From contig JBHICX010000002.1 in NCBI GenBank assembly GCA_046759805.1, forward strand, positions 1-34,155: a DNA stretch of 34,155 bases. The letters run 5' to 3'. This document shows, in pieces, positions 10,256 through 29,262 of this stretch. Within the stretch, counting starts at the first letter, position 1; each line of letters starts with the position of its first letter. This stretch comes from Kiloniellales bacterium (lineage in GTDB: Bacteria; Pseudomonadota; Alphaproteobacteria; JBHICX01). The notes beneath the pieces were generated by a model. That model was not told where the DNA came from. It did not search any database and saw only the letters and a program-made list of their open reading frames with translations. The position numbers were made by a program, and so were the translations under genes.

Positions 10256-11115
10256 TGCCAATCGATTCGTCGACATCCCAAGTGGTGGTCTATCTCGGCT
10301 ATCACAAGACCGCCAGCAAATGGGTGTGGAACAATTTCTTCAAGCGCCATTACCCGTGCCGCCAGGTGAACCTGTTCGAGCGGCCGGCGGCCGAGTTGAG
10401 AAAGACCATAGGCGGCACCGGCTCCCCCTTCATCCTGCGCCAGCGCATCGAAGGCGGCCTCATGGGCGGGGAGTTGCCGGCCCTGGTGGAGACCATTGCC
10501 GAGGCGTTCCCCGATGCCCGGGTGGTCGCCGGAATCCGCTCCCAGCGCTCGATGCTGCCGTCCCACTACGGCCAGTACGTCACCAACGGCGGGCGGCTGG
10601 GGTTCGCCGCCTATCTCGACCAGGTGGTGAAGACCAAGTGGCATTACACGCCCGTCCTCAAGGCCTTCCTCGAGCGGTTCGGCGACAACATGTTCGTGTA
10701 TCTGTTCGAGGAGTTGCGGGAGGACCCGTTCGCGCTCCTGTGCCGGCTGCGTGACTTCGTAGGCGCGCCGGAGGGCGGGCTCGACGACCAGGCGCTGCGG
10801 CGCGTCGCCGCCGTGCCGCCGATGAACCCGCAGCGCAACGACCTGGTCGTCGACACCATGCTGCTGTTGAACCGCCTGCGCATGCGTCACCCGAAGAACG
10901 CCATCTTCCCGGAGCTCCGCCGGCCGGGGCACGACCACATCCTGGTCGAGGTGGCCGAGGTTATCGCCAGGTCCTACGCGGCACGCTACGGCCGGCCGCT
11001 GCGCTACCGCAGGTTCGACGACCGTGGCGCCCTCGGCCCGGCCTATGGGGCGGAGAACCAGGAGTTGTCGGCGCTGCTGGATCGGCCGTTGCGGGACTAT
11101 GGCTATCCGAGCTAA
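10255..11115 (+). CDS. sulfotransferase-family protein
   Basis: Start ATG 10255 (TGATG overlap). 286 aa. VVVYLGYHKTASKWV is 5'-PSB-like and AGIRSQRSMLPSHYGQYV is 3'-PB-like. The upstream part of track ORF 9736..11115 is a shadow extension. Confidence 0.55.
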   Translation: MPIDSSTSQVVVYLGYHKTASKWVWNNFFKRHYPCRQVNLFERPAAELRKTIGGTGSPFILRQRIEGGLMGGELPALVETIAEAFPDARVVAGIRSQRSMLPSHYGQYVTNGGRLGFAAYLDQVVKTKWHYTPVLKAFLERFGDNMFVYLFEELREDPFALLCRLRDFVGAPEGGLDDQALRRVAAVPPMNPQRNDLVVDTMLLLNRLRMRHPKNAIFPELRRPGHDHILVEVAEVIARSYAARYGRPLRYRRFDDRGALGPAYGAENQELSALLDRPLRDYGYPS

Positions 11116-11131
11116 GGCGACCGCGGCGCCC

Positions 11132-12649
11132 ATGCGCGTCCTGCGCGATCTGGTGCCCCTGCTGCTGCTGGCGAGTTGGCCGTTCGTGGCGTTCCTCGCC
11201 GCGAACAAGGCGCAGATCTTTCGCCTCGAAGATGTCCTGGTTCCCTGGGGTGCCTACGTTGTTGCCCTGACCGCCGGGGCGTTGCTCGCCGCGCGTTGGA
11301 TCAGGGGCCTCTCGCTTGTGCGCGTCGCCATCGTCGTAGGCGCGCTGAGCGCCACCTTCTTCGGCTTCGGCAGCCTCGGCCACCTGCTCGGCCTCGCCGG
11401 CATCGAGCTCGGCACCGTTTGGCTGCTGGTCTGGCTGGTCGCCTTTGCCGCCGTCGGCGGCTTGTGCTGGGTGTTCTCGCGGCGGCCCGCCGCCTGGCTC
11501 GTTACCACGGTTGTGGCCGCGGCATTCCTCGTCTGGCCCAGCCTCGATCTGGCCTCAGCCTGGTTCACCGGCGGCAGCCGGCAGGCGGGCGAGGACAAAG
11601 TGGCGACGACGCAACCGGGCACCGGCAAGATGCCCAACGTCTACTGGTTCCTGCTCGACGGCTATGTGCGCGATGACAGCCTCAGGCGCTACTTCGCCCA
11701 CGACAACGGGCCGTTCGTGCAATTCCTGAGCGAGCGCGGCTTCCAGATCGGCTGGGCCAGCCATTCCAACTACGACAACACCACCTTCTCGCTCGCCTCG
11801 ACCATGGGCATGGATTACGTGTACCTGCCGGGTGAGCCACGCCCTCCATCGCGCGCTTACACGCGCACGCTCGCCGGCTTCAATCCGGTGGTGCGCAAGT
11901 TCCTGGCCACGGGCTACCGCTACATCCACGCGCCTTACGCCGGTTCAGCGAAGACCCAGTGCGGCGGCCTGGAGCACCGCTGCATCCGCGCCCGGCCGAG
12001 CGGGCGCATCCCCCTGAACGAGGTACAGGTGAACCTGTTGCGCTTGACGCCGCTGTTCCGGGTCATCCGCCGGCTGATGCCGGGGGCGTTCCGCTACGAC
12101 CACATCTTCATCGCCGACGTGATGGCCGCCATGCGCGACGGGGAGGCGGCGCCGTTCTTCCTGTTCGCCCACATCCTGTCGCCGCACGCGCCGCCGCGCT
12201 TCACTCCGGAATGCCGGCGCCTGGACGATGTGGCCGCCAGCCTCGACGTCGGCGAGGGGTTCTACGATCCGGTCCAGTTCCGCACCGACGTTAGATGCAC
12301 CAACCGGTCGCTGGAGCGGGCAGTCCGGGAGATCGTCGAACGGGACTCGAGCGACCCGATAATCATCCTGCAAGGCGACCATGGCTTCAAATTCCGCCTG
12401 CCCGGGGAGTCGGAGGGCGCACTCGAGGCCGCCGCCGACGGCGTCCTAGCGGCTCGCCGTCTGGCCATCCTGAACGCGATCCGCTTGCCTACGGCCTGCC
12501 GGGACCGGTTTTACGAGACCATCTCGCCGGTCAACACCTTCCGGCTCGTGTTCGCATGCATCGAGGGCCGCCAGCCCGAATTCGTCGCCGACCGGCACTT
12601 CCTTCGCCCTCGGGGATCGGAGGGGGGCCTCAAGGAAGTGCATCCGTGA
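11132..12649 (+). CDS. membrane-anchored sulfatase-fold (alkaline phosphatase superfamily, LtaS/EptA-like) hydrolase/transferase, paralog 1
   Basis: Start taken at ATG 11132 (MRVLRDLVPLLLLASWPFVAFL..). About 5 N-terminal hydrophobic helices, then MPNVYWFLLDGYVRDD (metal-site Asp), NTTFSLASTMGM (Ser/Thr nucleophile region), HILSPHAPPRF and ILQGDHGFKF. No C/S-x-P-x-R formylglycine motif seen. Confidence 0.75.
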   Translation: MRVLRDLVPLLLLASWPFVAFLAANKAQIFRLEDVLVPWGAYVVALTAGALLAARWIRGLSLVRVAIVVGALSATFFGFGSLGHLLGLAGIELGTVWLLVWLVAFAAVGGLCWVFSRRPAAWLVTTVVAAAFLVWPSLDLASAWFTGGSRQAGEDKVATTQPGTGKMPNVYWFLLDGYVRDDSLRRYFAHDNGPFVQFLSERGFQIGWASHSNYDNTTFSLASTMGMDYVYLPGEPRPPSRAYTRTLAGFNPVVRKFLATGYRYIHAPYAGSAKTQCGGLEHRCIRARPSGRIPLNEVQVNLLRLTPLFRVIRRLMPGAFRYDHIFIADVMAAMRDGEAAPFFLFAHILSPHAPPRFTPECRRLDDVAASLDVGEGFYDPVQFRTDVRCTNRSLERAVREIVERDSSDPIIILQGDHGFKFRLPGESEGALEAAADGVLAARRLAILNAIRLPTACRDRFYETISPVNTFRLVFACIEGRQPEFVADRHFLRPRGSEGGLKEVHP

Positions 12650-13652: not shown

Positions 13653-15017
13653 ATGAGCCGAAACCAGATCGCGGCCCTGTTCCTCGCCGCCGTCCTGATC
13701 CGGCTCGCCTATGTCGGGGTGGTGGTGCTGTTGGACGGCAGCTTCGACAACGGCAGCGACTCGGGCAAGTACCTGATACGGGCCTCGAACCTCCTGCAAT
13801 ACGGCGCCATCGTCTATTGGGACCACGGGGTGCTCATTCCCGACACCGCGCGCATGCCGCTCTATCCCTACTTCCTGGCCGGCGTTCTGGGCGCAATTGG
13901 CGAGGATGCGCTGTGGGCGGTGGCGGTCCTCCAGGCGTTCATCGACGCCGCCACGGTCATCGCCGTCGGCCTGATTGCCGGCTTGATCGACCGCCGATGG
14001 GCGGTGCCAGCGGCGGCGCTCGCCTGCGTATGGACGACGATGGTTGTCTATTCGTCCTTCGTGTTGACCGACACCCTGTTCCTGGCCTTTTTCGCCTGGG
14101 GGCTGTGCGCCTGCCTGTGGGCGGTGCGAAGCCAACGCAAGGTAGTGTTGCTTATTGCTGCCGGCGCTTGTTTCGGGCTCGCCGTGCTCACCCGCCCGAT
14201 CTTGATTTTCTTTCCCTATCTGCTCATGCCGGCGCTTGCTTGCATGTTGTGGGCCGCGGCCGGGCTCGGATGGCGACGCGCCATCGGACTGGCGGCGATT
14301 CCCGCCCTCCTGCTGGCCGCGGCGCTCATGCCGCGCCTGGGCATGACCTACGCCCACTACGGCGCGCCGGTGGTCACCACCCAGACTGGGAACCAGGCCC
14401 TCGACGTGGTCGACCAGTTCCTGCGCCTGTGCCCGCAATGTGTGGCCGAGCGGAGGGAGCAAGGCATGCACGCGAAGGTTGCGGCACTGTTGGACCAGGA
14501 GGATGCGGCGGATCGAAGGAATCCGCTAGTCCTCGACCGCATTCGCCGCGAGGTGGCATTCGAATACTTGAAGGAGTTGCCGCCCCTCGTGGTGCTTCGG
14601 GGCGTGCTCACCGCGGTCCTGCGCTCGACGCTGCAGACCGGGCTCTACGAGGCCGGATACCAGCTCAACCGCAACCCGATGTTCTTCTCCGCCGCCCCCG
14701 GGGCGTCCTTGGCGGCCCGAATCTGGAACTTCGCCAAGGCCGTCCTCGGCGACGGCTACCTGTTCGCCTGGGCGCTGGCCCAGGCCGCCGTGCTCATTGG
14801 CTTCGCGCTTCAGCTGGGGGGTGTCGTGGCCGGCGTCCGGGACCCGGGTGCCCGGCCTTTCGTCATGTTCCTGATGGCGGTCGCCGCCTACTTCCTGGCG
14901 CTCAACGGCCCGTTCGGCAATCCGCGCTACGGCATGCCGCTGGCGCCCACGTTGGTCGTGCTCACCGTCGCCGGGGGCTTCCTGGTATGGCGGCGGCTTG
15001 CTAACCGGCGAATTTGA
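13653..15017 (+). CDS. GT-C fold membrane glycosyltransferase (ArnT/PMT_2, GT39/GT83-like)
   Basis: Start taken at ATG 13653 (MSRNQIAALFLAAVLIRLAYV..). 454 aa and polytopic (>=9 hydrophobic segments). First-loop acidic motif DNGSDSGKY, then MPLYPYFLAGV, typical of ArnT/PMT-like enzymes. Confidence 0.65.
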   Translation: MSRNQIAALFLAAVLIRLAYVGVVVLLDGSFDNGSDSGKYLIRASNLLQYGAIVYWDHGVLIPDTARMPLYPYFLAGVLGAIGEDALWAVAVLQAFIDAATVIAVGLIAGLIDRRWAVPAAALACVWTTMVVYSSFVLTDTLFLAFFAWGLCACLWAVRSQRKVVLLIAAGACFGLAVLTRPILIFFPYLLMPALACMLWAAAGLGWRRAIGLAAIPALLLAAALMPRLGMTYAHYGAPVVTTQTGNQALDVVDQFLRLCPQCVAERREQGMHAKVAALLDQEDAADRRNPLVLDRIRREVAFEYLKELPPLVVLRGVLTAVLRSTLQTGLYEAGYQLNRNPMFFSAAPGASLAARIWNFAKAVLGDGYLFAWALAQAAVLIGFALQLGGVVAGVRDPGARPFVMFLMAVAAYFLALNGPFGNPRYGMPLAPTLVVLTVAGGFLVWRRLANRRI

Positions 15018-15018
15018 C

Positions 15019-15846
15019 ATGACCCGCGACGACGTGCGGCTCACGCCGCAGGACAAGCGCCGGTTCGAGACGGACGGCTACTACCTGCTCAAGGGCCTCC
15101 TCGGCCCCGAGGAGGCGCGCGCATACCGGCACCTGATCAATCGAGCCCTCGATCTGCCGGAGACTGACTTGGAGTCCGACCAGATCGGTCAACGCACCTA
15201 CTCGCTGGCCGACGGCGTGACCAAGAGCCCCGACTTCTGGCCGCTGATCTTCAACCGGCGGCTGGTGGCGACGGTGCGGGAGCTGTTGGGAGGCGACATC
15301 CGCTACACCCAGCATTCAGACCTGCACATCAATCTGAGGGGTGGCCGCTACCACCGGGATAGCGCCTGCAGGGAATTTGGCCAGGGCCCCGACTGGGACG
15401 AGACCGAGGCGCCCTACAAGGTGGTGCGGGTCGCGATCTATCTGTCGGATTTCCGCGACAGCGGGTCTTCGATCATCATCCTGCCGGGCAGCCACCGCAG
15501 GGAATCGTCGCTCAACCGGCTGGAGTACGTCGCCTGGAACAAGCTGCGGGCGTTGGCACGCCGGCACGGCCGCAACGACATGCTGCCGCACGTCTTCCTC
15601 ACGCGACCGCAGCTAACCATCAGGACCGAACCGGGCGATTGCGTCGTCTTCGACCAACGGTTGATGCACGCGGGCGGTGTTCTTCGCGGCGCCAATCCGA
15701 AATACTCGGTGTTCCTGGCCTATGGCTTGGACAACCATCATTCGCGGAACCACCGCGCGTTCTTCCTGAAACGACCGACCTACAGCCCGGACATCCCGGC
15801 GGAGCTGCGCGACAGGCTCAAGGCGGAAAACCTGCTGCTCGCCTGA
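15019..15846 (+). CDS. phytanoyl-CoA dioxygenase (PhyH)-family Fe(II)/2-oxoglutarate dioxygenase (second copy)
   Basis: Start ATG 15019, 1 nt after the upstream stop. 275 aa. FETDGYYLLKGLL, GGRYHRDS (H-x-D), VAIYLSDF..IIILPGSHR and VVFDQRLMHAG (distal His). Confidence 0.8.
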   Translation: MTRDDVRLTPQDKRRFETDGYYLLKGLLGPEEARAYRHLINRALDLPETDLESDQIGQRTYSLADGVTKSPDFWPLIFNRRLVATVRELLGGDIRYTQHSDLHINLRGGRYHRDSACREFGQGPDWDETEAPYKVVRVAIYLSDFRDSGSSIIILPGSHRRESSLNRLEYVAWNKLRALARRHGRNDMLPHVFLTRPQLTIRTEPGDCVVFDQRLMHAGGVLRGANPKYSVFLAYGLDNHHSRNHRAFFLKRPTYSPDIPAELRDRLKAENLLLA

Positions 15847-15893
15847 TCCGCCGGCCCGCCATCCTCCCCTGTCCATCGAAGGAGGTGCCCGAG

Positions 15894-16739
15894 ATGACAA
15901 CTAGGCGACCCTTCCTGATCGCCGAGATCGGCATCAACCACAACGGCGACGTCGAGCTTGCCAAGCGGATGATAGACGCCGCCAAGGACGCGGCGTTTGA
16001 CGCCGTCAAGTTCCAGAAGCGCACCATCGACCTGGTCTATTCGAAGGAGTTCCTCGACGGCTTCCGGGACAGCCCCTGGGGAACCACCCAGCGCGCCCAG
16101 AAGGAGGGCCTGGAGCTCTCGGAAGCCGACTACGTGGAGATCGACCGCACCTGCAAGGATTTGGACATCCAGTGGACGGCGTCCGCATGGGACCTGGAGA
16201 GCCTCAAATTCCTGGGCCGGTTCGACGTGCCGTTCCACAAGGTGGCCTCGCCGATGCTCGGCCACACCCCGCTGTTGCAGGAGATCGCCGCCGAGGGCAA
16301 GAAGACCTTCATCTCCACCGGCATGTCCACGCTCGACGAGATCGACCAGGTGGTCGATCTGTTCCGCAAGGCGAACTGCCCGTTCGAGCTGATGCATTGC
16401 AACAGCACCTATCCGATGCGCATGGAGGACGCCAATCTGGCGTGCATTCCCATGCTGCGGGAGCGCTACGGCGCCGACGTCGGCTATTCCGGCCACGAGA
16501 CCTGTCTGGTCACCGTCTGCGTCGCCGCGGTGGCGCTGGGCGCCACCTCGCTCGAGCGCCACGTGACCCTGGACCGCAGCATGTACGGCTCCGACCAGGC
16601 CGCCTCCATCGAATGCAAGTCATTGCGTAGCTTCGTGACCGCGGTCCGGGCGGTGCCGGGGATCCTGGGGGATGGGGTGAAGCGGGTGAACGACACCGAG
16701 CGGCCGCTCCGCGAGAAGCTCTACGTCAATGTCGCCTGA
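15894..16739 (+). CDS. NeuB-family nonulosonate (sialic/legionaminic/pseudaminic-type) synthase, TIM-barrel only (no C-terminal SAF domain)
   Basis: GGAGG RBS at 15881-15885 and ATG at 15894. PFLIAEIGINHNGDVELAKRMIDAAKDAAFDAVKFQKR is the canonical NeuB N-terminus. 281 aa, ending right after the barrel (..RPLREKLYVNVA*). Confidence 0.9.
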   Translation: MTTRRPFLIAEIGINHNGDVELAKRMIDAAKDAAFDAVKFQKRTIDLVYSKEFLDGFRDSPWGTTQRAQKEGLELSEADYVEIDRTCKDLDIQWTASAWDLESLKFLGRFDVPFHKVASPMLGHTPLLQEIAAEGKKTFISTGMSTLDEIDQVVDLFRKANCPFELMHCNSTYPMRMEDANLACIPMLRERYGADVGYSGHETCLVTVCVAAVALGATSLERHVTLDRSMYGSDQAASIECKSLRSFVTAVRAVPGILGDGVKRVNDTERPLREKLYVNVA

Positions 16740-17472
16740 GGCGATGGCGCATACGGTCTGCGTGGTGTTGGCGCGCGGCGGCTCCAAGGGCATCCCGGCC
16801 AAGAACCTGGCCGATTTCTGCAGCAAGCCGCTCTTGGCCTGGACCCTCGAACAGGCCCTGGCGGCGACCCGCATCGACCAGGTTTGGGTGAGCTCCGACA
16901 GCGATGCGGTCCTCGACCTCGCCCGGTCGCTCGGCGCCGGGACGATCCGGCGGCCGGCGGCGCTGGCCGGCGACGGGGCGAGCTCGGAGTCCGGCTGGCT
17001 GCACGCGCTCGAGGTCCTGGAGGGCGAAGGTACTACCGTCGACCTCATGGTCGGGCCGCAATGCACCTCGCCGGTGCGCCAAGCCGCCGACTTCGACCGG
17101 GCGATCGAGCGGTTCCAGGCGGAGGGGTTGGATTCACTGTTTTCGGCGACGCTGTTGCCGCATTTCAACTTCTGGCGCACCGACGCGCGCGGCCGGTTCG
17201 CGAGCTTCAACTACGATTACCGGCGGCGCGGATTCCGTCAGGACCAGCCGCCGCAATACCTCGAGAACGGGTCGTTCTACCTGATGAAGCCGGAGATCCT
17301 GCGCCGGCACAACAACCGGCTCGGCGGCCGGATCGGCGTCTACTGCATGGACTTCTGGAAAAGCTTCCAGATCGACGAGGCGGAGGACCTGCGCTTCTGC
17401 GAGACCTTGATGCGCGCCTATCTACCGAATGACGTCGCGGCGGCGCGAACCGGCCAAGACACGGGATCATGA
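16729..17472 (+). CDS. acylneuraminate cytidylyltransferase (NeuA-type CMP-nonulosonate synthetase), second copy
   Basis: 247 aa (alternative ATG at 16744). CVVLARGGSKGIPAKNL signature. Overlaps the NeuB-like stop by 11 nt if it starts at 16729. Confidence 0.85.
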   Translation: MSPEAMAHTVCVVLARGGSKGIPAKNLADFCSKPLLAWTLEQALAATRIDQVWVSSDSDAVLDLARSLGAGTIRRPAALAGDGASSESGWLHALEVLEGEGTTVDLMVGPQCTSPVRQAADFDRAIERFQAEGLDSLFSATLLPHFNFWRTDARGRFASFNYDYRRRGFRQDQPPQYLENGSFYLMKPEILRRHNNRLGGRIGVYCMDFWKSFQIDEAEDLRFCETLMRAYLPNDVAAARTGQDTGS

Positions 17473-19223
17473 ATACCCCAACGGATGGCGACCAACGTCC
17501 TGCTCCCTGGCTGATCGGCGGGCCGGGGCGCAGCGGCAAGACCACGCTCGCGCTGGCGCTGAACAAGGGCGAGGGACCGGTCGCCGGGTTCCCGGTGGAG
17601 GGGCTGTTCACCTACTATCTGAAGCGCCGTTTCCTGAACTTCCCGGTGCACCGGCGTCAACTGTTGGCAGAGTACCTGACCCGGCCGCGCTATATGGACA
17701 GCGACCGGGACGTGGTGCGACGGCCCATCGAGTTCTTCCACCGGCCGCTCACGGACATCCTGGCGCGCATCCCGGCGACCGTCCGGCACCGGATCGACCT
17801 CATCGACTGGGCCTTGCAACGCTTCGCCGAGGATAACGGACGGCGGACATGGGCCGCCTTCGACCTGCATCCCGAGTTCCGCTACCCGAGCTTCCGGCGG
17901 CGCATCCCGGGATTGAAGCTGGCGGTGATGGTGCGCGACCCGCGCCGGTCGCTCCACGACATGATGCATTGGCGCCGCACGCCGATCGGCACGCCGCGCT
18001 TCGAGCGGCGCTTCCGGCACAGCCTCGTCATGTGGTGCCTGGGGCTCCAGGCGGCGCGGCGGCGCGCCAGGCGCTATCCCGGCGACGTCGTGCTGTTCTG
18101 CTTCGACGCCTTGATCCGGGGCGAGGCGCAGGAATGCGCGCGACTGGCCGACGCCTTCGGCATGCAGGCCGAGGCGCTTCGCGCCGCCTTCGCCTTCGAG
18201 CCGGCGCTGCGGCCCGAGGAGGGCAATCAAGCCGACCACCCGGGGCCGGACTTCTCCGCGCCCTACCTGGCCGAGATCGACCTCTTGTGCCGGCCGCTTG
18301 CCGGCGAATTCGTCCGCCAATTCGCGGCACCCGCGGCCGCCACGCGGGCGGCGCGGCGCGGGTTCCTGCGGGTGGCGCGGCTCCTCCTCGCCCTCGGACG
18401 CGTCTCGCCGCGCCTGGCTCGCCTGGCCGCCGACTTCGTCTATTTCCCCGCGAACAGCGCCCGGCGCATGGGCAACTCGCTGCTGCGCGTGGCACGGGAC
18501 AACCTCCACGCGATCGGGGGTCGGGCGCCGGGCGACGCCCCGATGGGGCGCCGCCCCGGACGCCCGTTGTTCTTCGTGGTCGCAGGCGCGCACGGCGTCG
18601 GCAAGTCCACCACCGTCGCCCAATGCCTGCGCATCCTTGAACGCCGCTCGATCCACGCCGAAGCCTTCCACCACGTCGTCGATACCCGTGGCGCCGGGAC
18701 CGGATCGCGCCACGCCGCGGGCCGCGCCGCGCCGCTCGGCTGGCGCCGCCTGGTGCCGGCGATGGTCAAGCTGGTCCTGGTGAGCCTCATCGACGAGGTG
18801 CGATACGCCTCCCGTGTCCACGGTCTCCTGCGGCGCGCGCTCAAGTCCGGGAAGCTCTCGGTCGCCGACCGCTACGTCTACGACCGCTGGGTCGATCTGC
18901 GGATCAGGGGTCGTCCATGGACGCAGATCGCCTCGGTGCGCCTGGCCTGCATGCTCATGCGCAAGCCGCGGCTGGTGGTGGTCCTGGAGGACGACCCGGC
19001 GCAGATCGCCCGGCGGAAGTCGGAGCTCACGGTCGAGGAGATCCGGCGCTACCAGGACGACCTGCCGCGGTTCCTGGAACGGCTGGGCGTCCCCCGCGCG
19101 GTGGTACGCATCGGCGGCCGGGACCCAGCCGCGGTGGCGGAGGAGGCGGTGCGGCGGATGCTGGCCGCGGCCGGCGACGCGGTGACCCCGTTCCTGGTCC
19201 CGGTGAGAAAGGCGGCGGAATGA
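17469..19223 (+). CDS. two-domain P-loop protein: N-terminal sulfotransferase-like domain fused to C-terminal thymidylate-kinase-like P-loop domain
   Basis: 584 aa with an ATGA overlap upstream. N-domain: LIGGPGRSGKTTL (5'-PSB/P-loop, aa 15-27) and LAVMVRDPRRSLHDMM (3'-PB-like, aa 151-166). Arg/Ala-rich linker at about aa 285-365. C-domain: FFVVAGAHGVGKSTT (aa 368-382), ADRYVYDRWVD and VVVLEDDPAQIARRK. Confidence 0.55.
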   Translation: MNTPTDGDQRPAPWLIGGPGRSGKTTLALALNKGEGPVAGFPVEGLFTYYLKRRFLNFPVHRRQLLAEYLTRPRYMDSDRDVVRRPIEFFHRPLTDILARIPATVRHRIDLIDWALQRFAEDNGRRTWAAFDLHPEFRYPSFRRRIPGLKLAVMVRDPRRSLHDMMHWRRTPIGTPRFERRFRHSLVMWCLGLQAARRRARRYPGDVVLFCFDALIRGEAQECARLADAFGMQAEALRAAFAFEPALRPEEGNQADHPGPDFSAPYLAEIDLLCRPLAGEFVRQFAAPAAATRAARRGFLRVARLLLALGRVSPRLARLAADFVYFPANSARRMGNSLLRVARDNLHAIGGRAPGDAPMGRRPGRPLFFVVAGAHGVGKSTTVAQCLRILERRSIHAEAFHHVVDTRGAGTGSRHAAGRAAPLGWRRLVPAMVKLVLVSLIDEVRYASRVHGLLRRALKSGKLSVADRYVYDRWVDLRIRGRPWTQIASVRLACMLMRKPRLVVVLEDDPAQIARRKSELTVEEIRRYQDDLPRFLERLGVPRAVVRIGGRDPAAVAEEAVRRMLAAAGDAVTPFLVPVRKAAE

Positions 19224-19233: not shown

Positions 19234-20754
19234 ATGACGCCGGGATCGGTCGGTTCGCGCGCCATGACCTGGCTGCCGCTGCCGTTGTTCGGGGCCTGGC
19301 CGTTCCTCGCCTTCCTCAACCACAATCAGGAGGACGCGCTCGACTACGGCGCGTCGGTCCTCGGGCTCGGCGCCGCCTATGTGGTGGTGCTGGCGGTTGC
19401 GGCGCTTGTCGCCGGGCTTCTGTTCCGGCGCAGCGCCCGGGCGCCAGCGGTGAACGCGCTGTGTGTGCTGACGGTGATGTTCTTCACCTATCTGCCGTTC
19501 TCGCGGACGCTCGCGGCCATGGGCGTCTCGCTGGGGACGGTGCGCCTCAGCCTGTGGCTCATATGCGCGCTGGGCCTGGCGGCGCTGGCCTGGCGGCTGT
19601 CGCGCTTCCAACGGGCGTCGTTCGTCGCCGCGCTCATGGGGGCGTTGCTGGTCGCCATGCCGGGGGTGCAACTGGCCTGGTTCGCCGCCGAGGGCGCCAT
19701 GGGGGGCCGGGCCGCTGACGCCGGCCCGCGGGTGGTCGGGGCGCAGGCGGAATCGCCCCCCAACGTGTACTGGTTCGTATTCGACATGTATGCCCGTGCC
19801 GACGTGCTGGAGGCGTATCTGGGCTACGACAACGGCGACTTCCTGGCCGCGCTCGGCCGGCGCGGCTTCTTCGTCGCCGATGAAGCGGTGGCCAACTACA
19901 GCAGTACCAAGCTTTCGCTCAGCACCACGGTCAGCATGGACTACTACCTGCCGGTGGGGCCGAAGCTGCATCCGCGGCTGTGGACCGACCGCCTGCAGGG
20001 CTACAACGCCGTGGTCGAGCGCTTCCATCAGCTGGGCTACCGCTACATCCACGCCGAGCCAGGCGGGGTCAACCGCAAGACCCGCTGCGGCGGCCGCGAG
20101 CAGCAGTGCATCTCCGGGCCGACCCGGGGCGTTCTCGGCATCAGCGAGGCGGAGGCCGGCCTCTTGAAACTGACGCCCTTGTATCCGGTGCTGATCGTCC
20201 TGGCGCCCGGCCTGCTGAGCTTCGATTTCACCGGCCTCGACGACGTGATCGCGGCGGTGCGGCTGGATGCCGAGCGGCCGCACTTCCTGTTCGCGCACAT
20301 CCTCTCGCCGCACCCGCCGGCCCGCTTCGGTCCCGGCTGCCGCCGCCTCACACGAACCGCCTGGGAGCTGGTCACCGAGGATTCCCCGAAGACCCGTACT
20401 GCCTACCTGCACGACCTCGGCTGCCTCAATCGGTTGATCCTGGAGGCGATCGACGAGATCCTGGCGCGGGATCGAAGCGACCCGATCCTGATCCTGCAGG
20501 GGGACCACGGCCTTAAGTTCGGCGCCGCGCCAGCTGGCGCCAGCGGCATGGAGCCGTGGCTGGGGGTGCACGGCATCCTGCATGCCATGCGTCGCCCTGA
20601 ACGCTGCCGCGACGATGCCTCTTCGCGCTTTTCGACGGTGAACACCTTCCGTATCGTGTTCGCCTGCATCGAGGAGACGCCCCTGGACCTGCTTGCCAAT
20701 CGGGTGTTCCGCTACCGCGGCCGCACGCTCACCGAGCTGGTGGCGGATTACTGA
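19234..20754 (+). CDS. membrane-anchored sulfatase-fold (alkaline phosphatase superfamily) hydrolase/transferase, paralog 2
   Basis: 506 aa (alternative Met at 19264). Collinear with 11132..12649: GAWPFLAFLNHNQ / ASWPFVAFLAANK; PPNVYWFVFDMYARAD / MPNVYWFLLDGYVRDD; SSTKLSLSTTVSMDYYL / DNTTFSLASTMGMDYVYL; HILSPHPPARF; ILQGDHGLKF; NTFRIVFACIEE. Confidence 0.75.
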   Translation: MTPGSVGSRAMTWLPLPLFGAWPFLAFLNHNQEDALDYGASVLGLGAAYVVVLAVAALVAGLLFRRSARAPAVNALCVLTVMFFTYLPFSRTLAAMGVSLGTVRLSLWLICALGLAALAWRLSRFQRASFVAALMGALLVAMPGVQLAWFAAEGAMGGRAADAGPRVVGAQAESPPNVYWFVFDMYARADVLEAYLGYDNGDFLAALGRRGFFVADEAVANYSSTKLSLSTTVSMDYYLPVGPKLHPRLWTDRLQGYNAVVERFHQLGYRYIHAEPGGVNRKTRCGGREQQCISGPTRGVLGISEAEAGLLKLTPLYPVLIVLAPGLLSFDFTGLDDVIAAVRLDAERPHFLFAHILSPHPPARFGPGCRRLTRTAWELVTEDSPKTRTAYLHDLGCLNRLILEAIDEILARDRSDPILILQGDHGLKFGAAPAGASGMEPWLGVHGILHAMRRPERCRDDASSRFSTVNTFRIVFACIEETPLDLLANRVFRYRGRTLTELVADY

Positions 20755-21092: not shown

Positions 21093-21117
21093 TCGCCGCC
21101 GCCTCAGCGGGCGGCGA
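21093..21117. terminator. GC-rich hairpin between convergent genes (possible bidirectional terminator)
   Basis: tcgccgcc (21093-21100) / 9-nt loop / ggcggcga (21110-21117). It lies in the 16-nt gap between the stop of 20812..21087 (+) and the stop of 21104..22279 (-) and runs into the latter's 3' end. There is no clear U-tract. Confidence 0.25.
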
Positions 21118-22279
21118 CGCCGCGCGCGGGCCTTCTGTCGTCGGTGGCCACAGGGCAGAGCCGGCGCAGCGCCCGCGCCGCGATCTGGCGCGCCGCCGGC
21201 CCATCCACCTCGCGGATATTGTTGGCGGCCCGGGCCCGGGTGATGAGCGCGTCGTCCAACCGGTCCGCATGGGCCGGCGTGACATAGCGGGACAGCGCCG
21301 CCCCGAGCCCGAGTTCGTCGAACCAGTCCTCCAGTGATTGCGGCACCGCATCGAGGGCGCAGCCAAGGCCGGCGGCGATCGGCTTGAGCCGCTCCGGGTC
21401 ATCAGCCGCGTTATAGCGCGCGCATTCCGCCAGCGAGAAGCTGCAGGCAAGCCCATGCGGGACCCCGAAGCGGGAGGTAAATTGATAGCTGATCGAGTGG
21501 GCGAGCGCCGTCTGGGTGGTGCCCATGGTGAGCCCCGAGATGAGCGCCGCCGTCTGCATGCGCCGGCGCAGCTCTACGTCGCCGGGCTGGTCGAGCGCGG
21601 CCTTCAGGTTGTTCCGCACGACGCCGATCGCGGTGGTCGCCAGTGCGTCCGTCACCGGCGAGTGATGCCGGTTCCAAACCGATTCGATGGCGTGCGAGAG
21701 GGCGTCCAGACCGCTCGCCAGGGTCAGCTCCGCTGGCATCGATGCGCACAGCGCCGGATCGTGGACGGCATGCCCGGGACGCAGGCGCGGGTCACTGACC
21801 GAGAACTTGATCCCATCGTCGCCCCAGATCGTCCCCCACTGCGTCACCTCCGAGCCGCTGCCCGAGGTCGTGGGCACGGCAATGATCGGCACCGGCTCGA
21901 GATCGTCCGGCAACGGTCGGCCTTCGCGCAGATGCGCCATCAGGGTCGCCACGTCGCCGTTTATGCCGGTGAGCGCCACGATCCCCTTGGCCGCGTCCAT
22001 GACGCTGCCGCCACCCAGCGCCACCACCACCTCCCCCGGCGGAAAGTCCTCGGCCAGGGCGATGACCGCGGAACAGCTCGGATTGGCCTCGACGCCGCCG
22101 ATCCGGACCGCCGGCTCGCCGCAAGCGCCGGCGAGCCGGTCCGGGACATCGCCGTCGGTCCAGAACTGGCTGGTCACCAGGGCCCAGGATCGCCCGCCGA
22201 TCAGTTCGGCCAGGGCCTTGTCGCAATCGGGCCCTTCGACCACCTGGGTCGGGCAGCGAAACGGATGCGTCAGAACCAA
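21104..22279 (-). CDS. iron-containing (group III) alcohol dehydrogenase; candidate phosphonoacetaldehyde reductase
   Basis: 391 aa with a TTG start. VVVALGGGSVMDAAKGIVAL is the Fe-ADH glycine-rich motif. ..AVPTTSGSGSEVT.. and His-rich metal-site region (LDALSHAIES, ALAHSISYQ). The start overlaps the stop of the upstream HEPD/MPnS-like gene by 10 nt. Confidence 0.75.
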   Translation of the reverse strand: MVLTHPFRCPTQVVEGPDCDKALAELIGGRSWALVTSQFWTDGDVPDRLAGACGEPAVRIGGVEANPSCSAVIALAEDFPPGEVVVALGGGSVMDAAKGIVALTGINGDVATLMAHLREGRPLPDDLEPVPIIAVPTTSGSGSEVTQWGTIWGDDGIKFSVSDPRLRPGHAVHDPALCASMPAELTLASGLDALSHAIESVWNRHHSPVTDALATTAIGVVRNNLKAALDQPGDVELRRRMQTAALISGLTMGTTQTALAHSISYQFTSRFGVPHGLACSFSLAECARYNAADDPERLKPIAAGLGCALDAVPQSLEDWFDELGLGAALSRYVTPAHADRLDDALITRARAANNIREVDGPAARQIAARALRRLCPVATDDRRPARGVAAR

Positions 22280-23649
22280 CGTTTCGTCTCCCGGACCACG
22301 CGCCGGCGGGTCTCGGCGGGGTAGAGGGCGAACTCATCGAGCACCGATTGCATGAGGCTCCCCGCCACGCGGACTATGGCCAGATGACCTTCACCCTCGC
22401 CGGTCGGTCGGGCGAAACGGTGGCCTATCATCGGCCGGACATAGGCGGAATCTCCAGGCGCCAGCTCGGTTTGGTGCCGGTCGCCCCAGTTGAGGGCGAC
22501 CGCGGCATCGCCGTAGTTGTAGACGTACTCGTGGAGGCCGTGGCGCAGGACCGCGTCCCCGGTGTCCTCGGCGAGAACCGTCACCTCGAATCCCTTGAGC
22601 CCCGGTTGATGCTTGGTGCGGGCGAGCTCGGTCAGGCGGTAGGCGGCCCGGTTCGAGTCGGGCGGAAAGGCCCGGCTCGGCGACCGCGCCCTGGTGCGCA
22701 CCACCACCTCCTCCTTCGGCGTGAGCTGGCTGACCATCAGGTCGGCGGGTCGCAGATCGAGCGCCGCGGCCAGCGCCGCGACCTCCGCCCCTTGGGGAAG
22801 CCGCGCCCCGGCGGCCAGCGCCGCCGCCGCTTCCTCGTCGAGGCCGGCGTCCACGAGGCGGCGCATGAGCTCGCCCGAGGTCAGGCTTTCCGCCGCCAAG
22901 GCGCGGACGATGCGCGCGGCGAAGGCGCCCTGAGGGTCGCGCAGGTCCCCGGCCAGTCGATCGAGATCCGGTCCCTCCAGGTGGCGCAGGGCGTCGAGCG
23001 CGCCACGCACCTCGCCGGCATAGGTGACGGCGATGATAAGCCCCAGTCGCCGCGGATCGCGGCTGGTGAAGCTGTGACGGACGAACGGGGTGATGTAGTT
23101 CGAATCGCCGGTGTTCATCTCGGCACAGTAGCCGCGCCCATCGATCCGCCAGTAGAAGTTCACCGCGCCGACGAAGAAGGTCAACTGATGCATCAGGTGG
23201 CCGTTGTTGTAGGCCACGTCCGGATTATCCGGGTCCGAATCCTCGACCAGGCGCAGCGGCCGGATCCACTCCGGCTTGAAGGGGGCGAGCCGGCTCATCG
23301 CCGTATCGCGATAGTCGTAGTAGGGCGTCTCGGACCCGGCCCGGTCCTTGCGCTCGAAGACGCGCGACGACGCGTCGGAGTCCGCCCTGCGCATCACCTT
23401 GACACCGTCCTCGGTATCGTCGGCTTCCACCCACAGGTCGGCGAGCGAGATCGGGTAGGCCTCGGCCATCGCGGTGAGCAGCGATCGGGCGGTCGCCTCA
23501 TCGGCCTCACCGGCGATCACCCGACGCACCGTCGCCGGATCCCGGTTCAGCTCCCGCGCCAGCGCCTCGGGGGTGCGTTTGAGGTCGTTGGCCTCGCTGA
23601 GGATGCGGGCGCCCAGCGCCTGAAGGTGTCGGGCCTTTCGGTCTTGCAT
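22270..23649 (-). CDS. HppE/HEPD/MPnS-family non-heme Fe(II) dioxygenase (HTH + double cupin); candidate methylphosphonate synthase
   Basis: Start taken at ATG 23647-23649, overlapping the upstream TGA by 1 nt. 459 aa. XRE-like HTH ARILSEANDLKRTPEALARELNRDPATVRRVIAGE. Cupin 1: VAYNNGH151LMHQ155LTFFVGAVNF165...GDSNYI186TPFVRH192SF. Cupin 2: HEYVYNYGD..LAPGDSAYVRPMIGHRF. Upstream ORF residues 23650..23832 are judged to be a shadow extension. Confidence 0.8.
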   Translation of the reverse strand: MQDRKARHLQALGARILSEANDLKRTPEALARELNRDPATVRRVIAGEADEATARSLLTAMAEAYPISLADLWVEADDTEDGVKVMRRADSDASSRVFERKDRAGSETPYYDYRDTAMSRLAPFKPEWIRPLRLVEDSDPDNPDVAYNNGHLMHQLTFFVGAVNFYWRIDGRGYCAEMNTGDSNYITPFVRHSFTSRDPRRLGLIIAVTYAGEVRGALDALRHLEGPDLDRLAGDLRDPQGAFAARIVRALAAESLTSGELMRRLVDAGLDEEAAAALAAGARLPQGAEVAALAAALDLRPADLMVSQLTPKEEVVVRTRARSPSRAFPPDSNRAAYRLTELARTKHQPGLKGFEVTVLAEDTGDAVLRHGLHEYVYNYGDAAVALNWGDRHQTELAPGDSAYVRPMIGHRFARPTGEGEGHLAIVRVAGSLMQSVLDEFALYPAETRRRVVRETKRWF

Positions 23650-24452
23650 CACGTCACCCCGGCGGCTTCGACGATGGTGAACAGGCGTTGGCGGGCGGAG
23701 ATCGAGGCGAGCCTTTGGTAGTCCTGCGGCGTATCGAGTTCGGCCCAGCCCCGCTCGACCAGCGCGCAGTCGACCCGGATTCCCCGATTCACGAGCTCCT
23801 GGATCATATCCGTGATGTAGGCCTGGCGCCATTCCGTCGCCTCATGGAACGGCGCCAGCGGGTCGAGGCGTCGCGCCAATTCCTCGAACACGTTCCGGAA
23901 GGCGGCCGCGCCGGCGGCGCTCATTCGCCACAGGCCCAGGAATTCGCCACAGTTGTAGGAGGCCGCGTCGGCGGGATCAAGATGCTTGCCGGCCTTGAGG
24001 ACCGCGCCGTCGGCGGAAAGGAACACGTTCTCCGCCTCCTCGACCGGGTGGTCGGTGCGGCCCTCGTAATAGGCCCGCCAGTCGGTGTCGACGGCCAGCA
24101 CGATATCGCCGGGGGTCTCGACGAGCCGGCGGTAGATCGTCGGCTCGACCCAGATGTCGGAGTAGGTGGCGATGACCGGCCCGGCCAGATGATCGCGGGC
24201 GCACATGAACGAGTGCAGGATGTTGTTGTCGAGATAGTCCTGGTTCTCGACGCGAACGATCTCGCCCTGGTCGATGCGGTGACCGAGATAGCCGGTGACC
24301 ACCACCACCGTCCCGCAGCCGACATGGCGCAGGCGCTCGATCGTGTGCTCGATGAGCGGCCGTCCGGCCACCGGAAGCAGGCACTTGGGAATGTCCTTCG
24401 CGACGGCGTCCATCCGGGCGCCGCGCCCGGCCGCGATCACGATGCCCTTCAT
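23649..24452 (-). CDS. LicC/PntC-like nucleotidyltransferase (probable cytidylyltransferase for a phospho(no)-alcohol/phosphonate)
   Basis: Start taken at ATG 24450-24452, preceded by GAGGTGAG. 267 aa. MKGIVIAAGRGARMDAVAKDIPKCLLPVAGRPLIEHTIERL..VVVVTGYLGHRI is the NTP_transferase (GXGTRL...PK) signature, most like LicC-type enzymes. Confidence 0.8.
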   Translation of the reverse strand: MKGIVIAAGRGARMDAVAKDIPKCLLPVAGRPLIEHTIERLRHVGCGTVVVVTGYLGHRIDQGEIVRVENQDYLDNNILHSFMCARDHLAGPVIATYSDIWVEPTIYRRLVETPGDIVLAVDTDWRAYYEGRTDHPVEEAENVFLSADGAVLKAGKHLDPADAASYNCGEFLGLWRMSAAGAAAFRNVFEELARRLDPLAPFHEATEWRQAYITDMIQELVNRGIRVDCALVERGWAELDTPQDYQRLASISARQRLFTIVEAAGVT

Positions 24453-24468
24453 GCGCCGCTCACCTCGA

Positions 24469-25653
24469 TCATTCGGCGCAAACGCCCGAGCGGCTCCGTG
24501 CGAGTTCGGCGATTGCGTCGGCGCCGCGAATGCCGCTCGTTCCAAGGTTGTAGATCCAAGTCTCCCGCATCCGGCGCGCCCGAGCGGCGAAGGAATCCGC
24601 GGTGTCCCACAGGGATTGTATCATCGCCGGCGCTTCGGACAATCGGTCCGGCGCCAGGACGGCCCCGATCTCCTCGCGGATGGCGACCTCCAGCGGCACC
24701 GCGCCCAGCCGCGTATATTCGGGATTGTTCACCTTGCGCGGCACGTCGACGAACAGCACCGGCCGTTCGAGCCCGAAGGCGAACTCCATCGCCACGCCGG
24801 ACCAATCGCTGATCATCAGGTGCGACCGGATGAGCGGGCCGAAGGAGGTGGTGTCCTCGTCGAGGGCGAAACCGGGACGCTCCTGGAAGCGCCCGTGAAG
24901 ATCGTCCAGAACACGCGGCGTGCGCCGGCGGGTCTGCGGATGCGGACGCACGCTCACCTGGTGCCCAGCGGCAAGCAGGATCTCCACCAGTTCCGCGCCG
25001 CAGGTCTCCAACAGCCCGTTCGCACCCCAGGACGGCGCCACCAGGACGCGCACCCCCTGGTCCGCGGGGGCCGGGCCGGGGTGTGCAGTGGCCGCGTCCA
25101 GGAGCGCGTCCAGGGGACCGTAGCCGTGGCGGAACAACCGCTTGGCCGGCAGGCCGTTGAGCCGCTCCCACTCCCGGGTCTCGGCCTCGTGATGGGGGCC
25201 GACGCACAGCACCGAATCGAAATGGTCGAAGGCGCCGCGGCGATAGATCATATGGGTGCTGACCATGGAATGGTGCAGGTAGACGTAATGCACCGGATGC
25301 AGCGAGCGCAGGAGGTGAAGGCTGTGCAGGTCGGGCATGGTCATCACCATGACGCCCGCCTCGATCGACCGAAACAGGTAGGTCTGCGCGGCCCCGTCGC
25401 CGATATAGAAGGCGAGGATGCGCGGGTCGTTGCCTCGAAGCAACGGATCCCGCGGGTCGGAGGTGAGGTAGCAGAGGGACTGGCCGTGCCGCCGGGTGAG
25501 CGCATCGACCACCGGCTTGAAGAACACCCAGTAGGCGGCGCCCTCGGAGTAGAACACCACCCGCCGCGCCTCGGGATCGAGCCTCTGCACCCGCCGGACG
25601 TCGCGCCAGGAACGCAAGACTTGCAACAGACCGCTCATCAAAGGCCGTTCCAT
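24469..25653 (-). CDS. TagB/TagF-like CDP-alcohol phosphotransferase family protein (Glyphos_transf-like)
   Basis: 394 aa (alternative Met at 25638). VLVAPSWG.., VRPHPQT.., SHLMISDWSGVAMEFAFGLERPVLFVD resemble the TagF catalytic-domain pattern (..P.W.., HP.., L[IM]xDYSS..xDF..l.kP.iF). Composition is normal, unlike the two overlapping Arg/Pro/Gly-rich alternative-frame ORFs. Confidence 0.65.
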   Translation of the reverse strand: MERPLMSGLLQVLRSWRDVRRVQRLDPEARRVVFYSEGAAYWVFFKPVVDALTRRHGQSLCYLTSDPRDPLLRGNDPRILAFYIGDGAAQTYLFRSIEAGVMVMTMPDLHSLHLLRSLHPVHYVYLHHSMVSTHMIYRRGAFDHFDSVLCVGPHHEAETREWERLNGLPAKRLFRHGYGPLDALLDAATAHPGPAPADQGVRVLVAPSWGANGLLETCGAELVEILLAAGHQVSVRPHPQTRRRTPRVLDDLHGRFQERPGFALDEDTTSFGPLIRSHLMISDWSGVAMEFAFGLERPVLFVDVPRKVNNPEYTRLGAVPLEVAIREEIGAVLAPDRLSEAPAMIQSLWDTADSFAARARRMRETWIYNLGTSGIRGADAIAELARSRSGVCAE

Positions 25654-25739: not shown

Positions 25740-25979
25740 ATGAACCATTCGTTCCGCCTCCTCGTCACAATGGCGTTCGTGGCCGGGCTCATGCCGTCCG
25801 AGGCGTGGGCCTATCTCGACCCCGGCACCGGCGGCATGCTGTTGCAGCTCTTGCTCGGCGGCGTCGCCGGCGCACTGGTGGTGATCAAGCTCTACTGGAG
25901 TCGCCTGCGCGAGGTGACGGCGCGCATCATGCGCGGCCACCAGGATAAGCCAGAGGACGGCCGCGCCGAGCCCGATTGA
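25740..25979 (+). CDS. small membrane/secreted protein of unknown function, paralog B (AY[IL]D.GT.GMLLQLL motif)
   Basis: 79 aa: MNHSFRLLVTMAFVAGLMPSEAWA-YLDPGTGGMLLQLLLGGVAGALVVIKLYWSRLREVTARIMRG.. Collinear with 20812..21087 at both protein and DNA level. Confidence 0.6.
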   Translation: MNHSFRLLVTMAFVAGLMPSEAWAYLDPGTGGMLLQLLLGGVAGALVVIKLYWSRLREVTARIMRGHQDKPEDGRAEPD

Positions 25980-27414
25980 CGGCGCCCGCGACAACCGAAC
26001 AGCCGGCGATGCAGGCCCAGTTGGATCCCGGCTCGTTCAAGGACCCCGAGGGGCGCGTGATCGTGCATCGGGGCGAGGTCTACCGCACCTTGACCGAGGA
26101 CGCGGCCCGGCGCATGCGCGCCAGCCGCGAGACCTTGGAGGCGCTCTGCCGCGACGGCCGGCTGATCGCCACCCGGCTCGTCTCCCGCGACGAGGCCGGG
26201 TTGCCGGCGGGGGTGGGCGGCGAGACCCTGTTGCACCACGAACGGGTGCCGGTCATCACCTATCCGTTCGAATGGTCCTTCGACATGCTTCGCGAGGCGG
26301 CGCTGTGCACGCTCGAGGTGCTGGAGACCTGCCTCGAGCGCGGCCTCATCCTTAAGGACGCCTCGGCCTACAACGTCGCCTTCCACCGCGGGCGCATGGT
26401 GTTCATCGACACCCTGTCGATCGACGCTTACGCCGAGGGCGAGCCCTGGGACGGCTATGCCCAGTTCTGCCGCGAGTTCCTGTTCCCGCTGATGCTGACC
26501 GCCTATCGCGGGGTCGAGTTCCAGCCCTGGTTCCGCGGCCGGCTCAACGGCCTGGCGCTGGCCGACCTGGCGCGTCTCCTCACCTGGCGCGACCTGTTGC
26601 GCAAGGGGGTGCTGCGCCATGTGGTCCTGCAGCGCCGGCTGGAGCGCTGGTTCGCCGGCGCCGACATGGAGATTCGCGGCCGGTTTCGCGACATCCGGTT
26701 CTCCAAAGGGATGATCCTGGCGAACCTGCGCGGCCTGCGAAAGGTTGTCGCATCGCTCGCTTACCGGGCGGCGGAGTCGCACTGGCTCGACTATACGGAA
26801 AAGAGCTCGTATTCCGATGAGGAACGGGCCCAGAAGGCGGACTTCGTCGGGCGAGCCTTGGATCGCCTCGCGCCGGCCCAGGTCGTCGACCTGGGCTGCA
26901 ACATCGGCGACCACGCGCTTATCGCCGCCGGGCGGGCGGCGCAAGTGGTCGCCGCCGACTTGGACCCGGCTTGCGTCAACACCCTCTACCGCCGCCTGGG
27001 CGCGGATGACGTGCGCAACGTGACGCCGATGGTCGCCGACCTTCTCAACCCCTCGCCGGGCCTGGGCTGGGACTTGCGCGAACGCAGCCCCTTGTTCGAC
27101 CGCATCCGCTCCGACGCCTTCCTGGCGCTGGCGCTGGTCCACCACGTGGCGATCGACGGCAACGTGCCGCTGGCCGCGTTCCTGGACCGGCTCAGTGACA
27201 TCGCCCCGGCGGGCGTCGTCGAATGGGTCGACAAGCAGGACGGCATGGTCCGCCGCATGCTGAGAAACCGCACCGACGTGTTCCCCGACTATGACTGGGC
27301 GCACTTCGAGCGCCTGCTGCGCGAGCGCTTTACCCTGGCCGAGGTAGCCGAAAGCCACCAGGGCCAGCGCAAGCTCTGCCTGGTGTTGCCGCGGGACAGG
27401 GAGCCCCCGAGCCC

Positions 27415-27418
<4 letters not shown>
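25976..27418 (+). CDS. fusion protein: N-terminal protein-kinase-like/choline-kinase-like domain + C-terminal class I SAM-dependent methyltransferase
   Basis: 480 aa from TTG 25976 (overlaps the upstream TGA; alternative ATG at 26009). N-domain: GLILKDASAYNVAF and MVFIDTLS resemble the catalytic-loop D-x4-N and the metal-binding Asp of APH/choline-kinase folds. C-domain: VVDLGCNIGDHAL (SAM motif I) and VVAADLD. Confidence 0.6.

Positions 27419-29258
<1,840 letters not shown>

Positions 29259-29262
<4 letters not shown>

Follow-up and report, generated by a model that had tools for sequence, protein, structure and literature searches.

A predicted methylphosphonate synthase in a nonulosonic acid glycan locus of a Kiloniellales bacterium

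Introduction

Methylphosphonate synthase (MPnS; EC 1.13.11.73) and the related HEPDs have been separated in earlier surveys by a small set of residues. In the compilation of Lockwood et al. 2022 (PMC9381506, Suppl. Table S2), mpnS products carry H148, Q152, F162, I/V184 and H190, and hepD products carry A/Q152, I/Y162 and E/G184. A second study (PMC11978286) describes a His-His-Gln triad and two Gln-adjacent residues, Phe and Ile, as needed for methylphosphonate synthesis, and the surveys in both papers apply the Phe/Ile signature as their test for MPnS. Lockwood et al. 2022 (PMC9381506) also place bacterial mpnS genes in Rhodospirillales and other orders, with glycosyltransferase, cytidylyl/adenylyltransferase and arylsulfatase genes as neighbours. 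Published work already covers the family and its diagnostic residues, as well as its presence in bacteria and its glycan-type gene neighbourhood. Here, we analyze an MPnS homologue of 459 amino acids (aa) encoded in a 34,155-nt stretch of DNA from a Kiloniellales bacterium (GenBank assembly GCA_046759805.1, contig JBHICX010000002.1; "the window" below). An earlier sequence-only reading of this stretch had assigned the protein to the MPnS type rather than the HEPD type.

Methane formed in oxygenated water has been proposed to derive from methylphosphonate esters, and with every MPnS that is confidently identified the list of likely producers therefore grows. The carbon-phosphorus (C-P) bond and phosphonoacetaldehyde are made by phosphoenolpyruvate (PEP) mutase, PepM, together with phosphonopyruvate decarboxylase, Ppd. 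We find that sequence, structure and gene neighbourhood all support the Kiloniellales protein as an enzyme that very probably makes methylphosphonate from 2-hydroxyethylphosphonate (2-HEP).

Results

The mpnS-like open reading frame (ORF) lies on the minus strand at positions 22270-23649, and is intact and stop-free over its 459 codons. An alternative, longer frame extends up to an ATG at 23832. We place the start at 23649 because the ATG there and the TGA of the upstream gene overlap as TGATG, with a shared A, and because alignments to homologues 452-476 aa long span 98-100% of the 459-aa form. GC content at the three codon positions is 0.74/0.51/0.82, typical of genuine genes in this 68% GC window. 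The ORF, the 459-aa length and the initiator Met at 23649 in the sequence-only reading are all borne out by the translation, the TGATG overlap and the homologue coverage, and the protein is indeed close in length to Nitrosopumilus maritimus MPnS (459 versus 457 aa).

The protein contains the motif NNGH151LMHQ155...F165...GDSNYI186TPFVRH192, in which H151 to H192 are encoded by nt 23074-23199. The corresponding stretch of N. maritimus MPnS (PDB 6B9S) reads NNGH148FMHQ152...F162...I184...H190, and in a HMMER alignment to this structure H151, Q155, F165, I186 and H192 pair gap-free with H148, Q152, F162, I184 and H190. H151, Q155 and H192 supply the 2-His-1-Gln triad of MPnS, and F165 and I186 supply the Phe expected at the F162 site and the Ile or Val expected at the I184 site. 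Across the five sites, both the Kiloniellales and N. maritimus proteins read HQFIH. The Streptomyces albus HEPD (SaHEPD; PDB 6B9R) keeps the H-x3-Q pattern and has Tyr and Gly at both discriminating sites, reading HQYGH. The query thus departs from class-II HEPDs, with Tyr at 162/163 and Gly at 184, and equally from class-I HEPDs, which use a 2-His-1-Glu triad with Glu at the I184 position, where the query has Ile; its third ligand is Gln. In addition, K24, R100, Y113 and N148 of the query align to K28, R102, Y110 and N145 of MPnS, which we provisionally take to be 2-HEP-binding residues, and are invariant in 26 relatives. The H-x3-Q pattern, the Phe 14 residues after the first His and the Ile six residues before the last, all pointed out in the sequence-only reading, hold their MPnS register in the alignments to 6B9S and 6B9R, and the residue criteria that it had given for MPnS and HEPD match those of PMC9381506 (Table S2) and PMC11978286.

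We next compared the whole protein with solved enzymes. A phmmer search of all PDB sequences returned N. maritimus MPnS (6B9S) as the best match (E 9e-82, residues 11-459), scoring 278 bits versus 235 bits for SaHEPD (6B9R; E 1e-68); matches to HppE (PDB 1ZZ6, 5U55) were weak, with E-values of 1e-6 to 1e-8. A profile of 26 relatives scored MPnS (6B9S) at 399 bits, SaHEPD (6B9R) at 323 bits and the class-I HEPD PhpD, detected by the profile alone, at 20 bits (E 1e-3). An AlphaFold2 model built on the 26-sequence alignment (pLDDT 92.2) gave 6B9T/6B9S as the top Foldseek matches (TM-score 0.82, E 3.5e-46), followed by 6B9R at 0.79 and PhpD at 0.63. E-values this low, for sequence and fold alike, set the resemblance to MPnS apart from a chance match. 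We compared class-I HEPD and HppE through these sequence and fold scores, in which both are far more distant than SaHEPD. The model consists of helices at residues 2-79, strands at 83-210, helices at 212-314 and strands at 315-428. The helix-turn-helix (HTH)-like and cupin parts proposed earlier are therefore present, although they form two helical HTH-like plus cupin repeats and not one HTH followed by two cupins. This double fold of about 450 aa, seen in the full-length HMMER match, the model and the Foldseek results, is that of HEPD and MPnS and differs from the single HTH plus cupin repeat of HppE (about 198 aa). Among domain databases, Pfam detects weak Cupin_2 and HTH fragments alone in the 459-aa protein, and NCBIfam has no model for it.

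A search of 5.8 billion proteins yielded 524 homologues at E < 1e-10, and an exact-sequence search saw the identical protein on no other contig. The closest, 88% identical, lies on a 5.3-kb ENA metagenome contig (locus L003), and the next are at most 67% identical. Several homologues are already called "methylphosphonate synthase" by JGI, and others come from metagenome-assembled genomes (MAGs) of Rhodospirillaceae, Rhodospirillales and Myxococcota. Among the best 120 of the 524 homologues plus the N. maritimus reference, 108 read HQFIH and 10 read HQFVH. An exhaustive HMMER search against representatives clustered at 50% identity returned 451 matches at E <= 0.001 and 208 at 1e-30. GTDB genomes with relatives include Rhodospirillaceae, Rhizobiaceae, Kiloniellaceae, Flavobacteriales, Chloroflexota and Planctomycetota; the nearest GTDB species representatives, marine-type Rhodospirillaceae, Rhizobiaceae, Kiloniellaceae and Flavobacteriales MAGs, are only 59% identical. 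Seven homologues among the representatives (P0122, P0137, P0138, P0139, P0154, P0166 and P0168) are 700-815 aa long, with the MPnS part C-terminal to 260-360 additional residues; such proteins could have arisen by fusion, with a nucleotidyltransferase or Ppd for instance, or could reflect gene-calling errors.

We aligned 92 near-full-length sequences with two PDB references (63 HQFIH and 17 HQYGH rows), and built a neighbour-joining tree of the 94 sequences, a distance method, with 100 bootstraps; the Pelagibacter enzyme was left out of this set. The query falls among Phe/Ile-type sequences, within a large bacterial HQFIH clade that is separate from both the archaeal N. maritimus MPnS group and the HQYGH group. 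Its split contains no HQYGH sequence in 100/100 bootstraps, and the core HQYGH clade leaves the query out in 98/100. The tree, which places the query outside the Tyr/Gly HEPD clade, agrees with the MPnS assignment of the sequence-only reading.

The mpnS-like gene is the third of four in a minus-strand operon that runs from 25653 to 21104 and encodes a TagF-like protein, a LicC/PntC-like nucleotidyltransferase, the MPnS homologue and an iron-containing alcohol dehydrogenase (Fe-ADH; Table 1). Stop and start codons overlap at both junctions within the last three genes: the nucleotidyltransferase stop overlaps the MPnS start, and there is a 10-nt overlap between the MPnS stop and the Fe-ADH start. 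This triad of nucleotidyltransferase (NTP-transferase), MPnS and Fe-ADH is kept in L003, the 88% identical relative, and in the majority of relatives at 50-62% identity. The directly downstream Fe-ADH has as its best NCBIfam family TIGR03405 (Phn_Fe-ADH, 274 bits), in line with the linkage to a phpC-type reductase expected of an mpnS gene, and is 56% identical to the gene at the equivalent position in L001, a locus whose MPnS homologue is 61% identical to the query. The nucleotidyltransferase ORF runs to 24545, with a probable start at the Met at 24452; its best PDB match is Streptococcus pneumoniae LicC (1JYK, 5e-11), and its match to Tde-PntC (6PD1) is weak. The TagF-like protein has no match in Pfam, NCBIfam or the PDB, and is 47% identical to an L001 gene product bearing PF04464 (Glyphos_transf). 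GC content is uniform across the region at 0.67-0.72, giving no sign of recent foreign insertion, and we accordingly reject the idea that the operon was recently acquired by horizontal transfer. The window gave no matches in Rfam or tRNA scans; around the operon we found no terminator-like site, and the sole promoter-like site was no better than chance.

Table 1 Coordinates of the operon and of neighbouring genes in the window
Feature	Position (nt)	Strand	Remarks
Second sulfatase-family paralogue	11024..12649	+	Pfam Sulfatase 9.6e-4; tblastn to L001 sulfatase 30%, 2e-41
NeuB-type nonulosonic acid synthase	15639-16739	+	Part of nonulosonate glycan genes
CMP-sugar cytidylyltransferase	16729-17472	+	Part of nonulosonate glycan genes
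Sulfatase/alkaline-phosphatase-superfamily protein	19234..20754	+	Convergent with operon; Pfam Sulfatase 2e-4, below cut-off
Fe-ADH, PhpC-like phosphonoacetaldehyde reductase	21104..22279	-	Pfam Fe-ADH/ADH_Fe_C; proposed 2-HEP maker
MPnS homologue, 459 aa	22270..23649	-	Proposed Fe ligands H151, Q155, H192; discriminating F165, I186
LicC/PntC-like nucleotidyltransferase	23649..24452	-	Pfam NTP_transf_3, 4.5e-17; proposed CMP-conjugate activation
TagF-like (Glyphos_transf-related) protein	24469..25653	-	First operon gene; candidate transferase of activated phosphonate onto glycan
Conserved protein, weak methyltransferase-like segment	25976..27418	+	Divergent from operon; weak Methyltransf_25, TehB matches
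Fused-type ABC exporter (membrane + ATPase domains)	27415..29262	+	Divergent from operon; homologues in 6 MPnS loci

Linkage to pepM and ppd, which is typical of mpnS but not defining, is missing from the 34-kb window. Profile hidden Markov models (HMMs) of 53 PepM and 42 Ppd sequences from related loci, run with filters off against six-frame segments of the window, matched nothing at E < 1, and on this basis we reject a degraded pepM or ppd remnant. In L001, the interval between the TagF-like and nucleotidyltransferase genes is exactly where a pepM-nucleotidyltransferase fusion and ppd are found. The same slot in the window (24452-24469) contains neither gene, and likewise in L003. We then counted loci with at least 9 kb on each side, scoring PepM/Ppd within 10 kb. 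Among relatives with at least 46% identity to the query, 11/16 loci lacked PepM/Ppd, as against 3/34 loci of more distant relatives (Fisher's exact test, p = 3e-5, for loci that are not phylogenetically independent), and the contigs of two pepM-less examples measure 367 kb and 1.29 Mb. In this clade, the NTP-transferase/mpnS/phpC triad appears to move about without the genes that form the C-P bond. As a default assumption, we take pepM and ppd to reside elsewhere in the genome.

We also asked what surrounds MPnS homologues more broadly, counting homologues of the window's genes within 10 kb of an MPnS homologue in 85 loci. Fe-ADH homologues occur in 71/85 loci, nucleotidyltransferase homologues in 52/85, TagF-like homologues in 20/85, sulfatase-family homologues in 10/85 and NeuB homologues in 14/85, with Nitrosopumilus among the last. 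The loci of closer relatives (at least about 45% identical) are mostly of 51-70% GC, with two near 0.42-0.49; among the signature-bearing bacterial homologues, loci of 55-67% GC are frequent. The high-GC bacterial glycan context, which had been called unusual, is therefore an ordinary one: there are hundreds of signature-bearing bacterial homologues, high-GC loci are common among the relatives, NeuB, nucleotidyltransferase and sulfatase neighbours recur, and PMC9381506 describes comparable neighbourhoods. Its description as a "sulfation" locus is not supported either, since two weak sulfatase-family matches below the Pfam cut-off are the sole evidence; neither a sulfotransferase nor an APS (adenosine 5'-phosphosulfate) kinase appeared when the called genes of the window were scanned with Pfam. 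The window NeuB is 56% identical to the NeuB of Nitrosopumilus sp. L058 (NZ_OZ253671.1), while the MPnS pair from these genomes is only about 36% identical. The presence of NeuB near MPnS hints at methylphosphonate on nonulosonate-containing glycans in both domains.

Besides the genes in Table 1, the window encodes a second CMP-sugar-type cytidylyltransferase (two in all), two DegT aminotransferases, methyltransferases and surface-carbohydrate proteins; the nearest named relative of a DegT gene is from Azospirillum fermentarium, at 66%, which points weakly to a Rhodospirillales-like source. The sulfatase-like protein at 19234..20754 has no PDB match, and is 81% identical to its L003 neighbour and 30% identical to its L001 neighbour. 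The conserved protein at 25976-27418 is 48% identical to a 437-aa gene product beside the L001 MPnS cluster (L001 14123-15436); its weak S-adenosylmethionine (SAM)-methyltransferase-like segment is at residues 291-358, and apart from L001 it occurs in no other of the 85 loci. An ArnT/PMT-like membrane glycosyltransferase gene (13557-15017) has a PhyH-family Fe/2-oxoglutarate dioxygenase gene on each side (12700-13578 and 14998-15846). Some PhyH relatives hydroxylate phosphonates, and homologues of the glycosyltransferase and one PhyH protein are found in the alphaproteobacterial MPnS loci L016 and L075. A 584-aa protein encoded at 17469-19223, between the CMP-sugar transferase and sulfatase-family genes, has a weak P-loop match (AAA_16/AAA_28) in its C-terminal third, no PDB relative and a homologue in 0/85 MPnS loci. 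At 9749-11115 on the plus strand, codon-position GC shifts frame near 10150-10250, from ORF 9473-10255 to ORF 9736-11115, consistent with either two short adjoining genes or one frameshifted gene; the translation of 9736-11115 has no family match.

Discussion

We propose that the Kiloniellales protein is a functional non-haem Fe(II), O2-dependent methylphosphonate synthase. Iron would be bound through H151, Q155 and H192 in the first cupin barrel, and F165 and I186 would pack on the Gln ligand, like F162 and I184 of the Nitrosopumilus enzyme. Cleavage of the C1-C2 bond of 2-HEP would then release methylphosphonate and CO2, and not hydroxymethylphosphonate (HMP) and formate. This predicted activity, and with it the earlier assignment to the MPnS type, has held in every sequence-level test that the earlier reading put forward, including residue register and tree placement, and agrees with the PhpC-like reductase gene directly downstream. 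The likeliest pathway, drawn by analogy from the characterised Lic and Pnt systems (PMC6697681) and the N. maritimus cluster, begins with the PhpC-like Fe-ADH, which would reduce phosphonoacetaldehyde to 2-HEP; MPnS would convert 2-HEP to methylphosphonate, and the LicC/PntC-like nucleotidyltransferase would turn the phosphonate into a nucleotide conjugate, probably with CMP. The TagF-like protein, the nearby sulfatase-family proteins or both could then attach the phosphonate as an ester to a cell-surface glycan, plausibly one whose synthesis the surrounding nonulosonic-acid genes carry out and whose export runs through the adjacent ABC transporter.

Several points weigh against this proposal. 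Overall identity is equal to N. maritimus MPnS (37.6%) and to the characterised class-II HEPD SaHEPD (37.4%), and because of this the product call depends on two second-shell residues together with clade placement. The sufficiency of both second-shell residues was reportedly demonstrated in one background, SaHEPD Y163F/G184I, in work attributed to Born et al. 2017. In the operon, the score of the Fe-ADH falls below the TIGR03405 cut-off of 423.7 bits, and the TagF-like and sulfatase-like assignments are weak. Lastly, tblastn with the L001 proteins detected neither PepM nor Ppd in the 34-kb window, so the operon alone cannot form the C-P bond.

The equal identities, together with nearly equal Foldseek scores for 6B9R and 6B9S, could also be read as signs of a class-II HEPD-like enzyme that yields HMP and formate, or mixed products, despite its Phe and Ile. 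We judge this very improbable: the query is of the Phe/Ile and not the Tyr/Gly type, it stands outside the HQYGH clade with 98-100% bootstrap support, both HMMER comparisons prefer MPnS, and no genes for the downstream processing of HMP lie nearby. Least probable of all, and barely credible in our estimate, is an MPnS-fold oxygenase acting on another phosphonate, such as nucleotide- or glycan-linked 2-HEP, 1-hydroxyethylphosphonate (1-HEP) or 2-hydroxypropylphosphonate (2-HPP), with a product other than free methylphosphonate. Translational coupling of the gene to the nucleotidyltransferase would fit such an activity, and cytidylylated 2-HEP is a true fosfomycin intermediate (Fom1, as cited in a passage of PMC6697681). 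However, the residues aligned to the presumed free 2-HEP site of MPnS are all conserved, and the N. maritimus enzyme, which has a like nucleotidyltransferase neighbour, uses free 2-HEP according to the title of PDB entry 6B9T.

A different question is where the substrate of a methylphosphonate synthase in this organism would come from. The bacterium might have no PEP mutase and might instead import 2-aminoethylphosphonate or 2-HEP, both abundant in marine dissolved organic matter, and convert them to methylphosphonate for a surface glycan. The silence of the PepM/Ppd profiles in the window, the slot that holds both genes in L001 and neither in the window or L003, and the higher proportion of PepM/Ppd-lacking loci among closer than among distant relatives would all fit such salvage. 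Nevertheless, a 34-kb contig or 10-kb flanks are silent on the rest of the genome, where pepM-ppd could feed several pathways, and the counted loci are phylogenetically non-independent. Moreover, neither a PhnW-type transaminase nor a phosphonate importer turned up when the window genes were scanned against Pfam, NCBIfam and the neighbour homologues, and the annotated genes of the two pepM-less loci L084 and L085 include none. On balance, we consider salvage unlikely. We give a similarly low chance to its generalization, in which nucleotidyltransferase, MPnS and phosphonoacetaldehyde reductase form a portable module uncoupled from PEP mutase, and some carriers convert scavenged 2-aminoethylphosphonate or 2-HEP for their glycans while forming no C-P bond. 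Were this module to exist, surveys that use pepM as a marker would miss a set of methylphosphonate, and hence methane-precursor, producers.

With the protein taken as a methylphosphonate synthase, it is a new and fairly divergent member of an already catalogued bacterial MPnS branch in its usual glycan-tailoring neighbourhood, and the gain is incremental. What is added is a divergent bacterial lineage of high GC, whose identity to GTDB species representatives does not exceed 59%, and a clear case of MPnS inside a cluster of nonulosonic-acid glycan genes. Of more use as a lead is that pepM and ppd are repeatedly missing beside mpnS in this clade, a point relevant to any metagenomic count of methylphosphonate producers.

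Among the closest known systems are bacterial MPnS homologues of Rhodospirillales-type MAGs, for example at loci L001 and L002 (JGI 3300034980, annotated as 'methylphosphonate synthase'). These proteins are 59-67% identical to the query and read HQFIH, and their loci share the same triad, with the TagF-like gene, the sulfatase-family gene and the conserved gene (25976-27418 in the window) adjoining and NeuB nearby; L001 differs from the window in its pepM-NTP-transferase fusion and ppd between the TagF-like and NTP-transferase genes. N. maritimus MPnS (6B9S/6B9T) resembles the query in length, double fold, 2-His-1-Gln triad, Phe and Ile beside the Gln ligand, and the aligned Lys, Arg, Tyr and Asn residues, and Fe-ADH, nucleotidyltransferase, sulfatase-family and NeuB genes also surround the Nitrosopumilus loci. 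Unlike the query, it is an archaeal enzyme outside the bacterial clade, at about 38% identity, and in the Nitrosopumilus loci pepM and ppd lie about 2-3 kb from mpnS, whereas the window has neither. The query shares its fold and triad with the class-II enzyme SaHEPD (6B9R) at 37% identity, but SaHEPD has Tyr and Gly at the F165 and I186 sites, belongs to a separate clade, mainly of actinomycetes, and produces HMP. PhpD (class-I HEPD, 3G7D) has the same superfamily and double-repeat fold but is 18% identical and has a Glu ligand at the I186 position, and HppE (1ZZ6, 5U55), also of this superfamily, is a single repeat of about 198 aa. Finally, as in the Pnt and Lic systems (Rice et al. 2019, PMC6697681), a LicC-like NTP_transf_3 enzyme is encoded beside phosphonate biosynthesis genes, which implies nucleotide activation before glycan transfer. 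PntC itself was characterised on 2-aminoethylphosphonate and is usually fused or adjacent to PEP mutase (PMC6697681), whereas the presumed substrate of its counterpart in the window is methylphosphonate, with PEP mutase not nearby.

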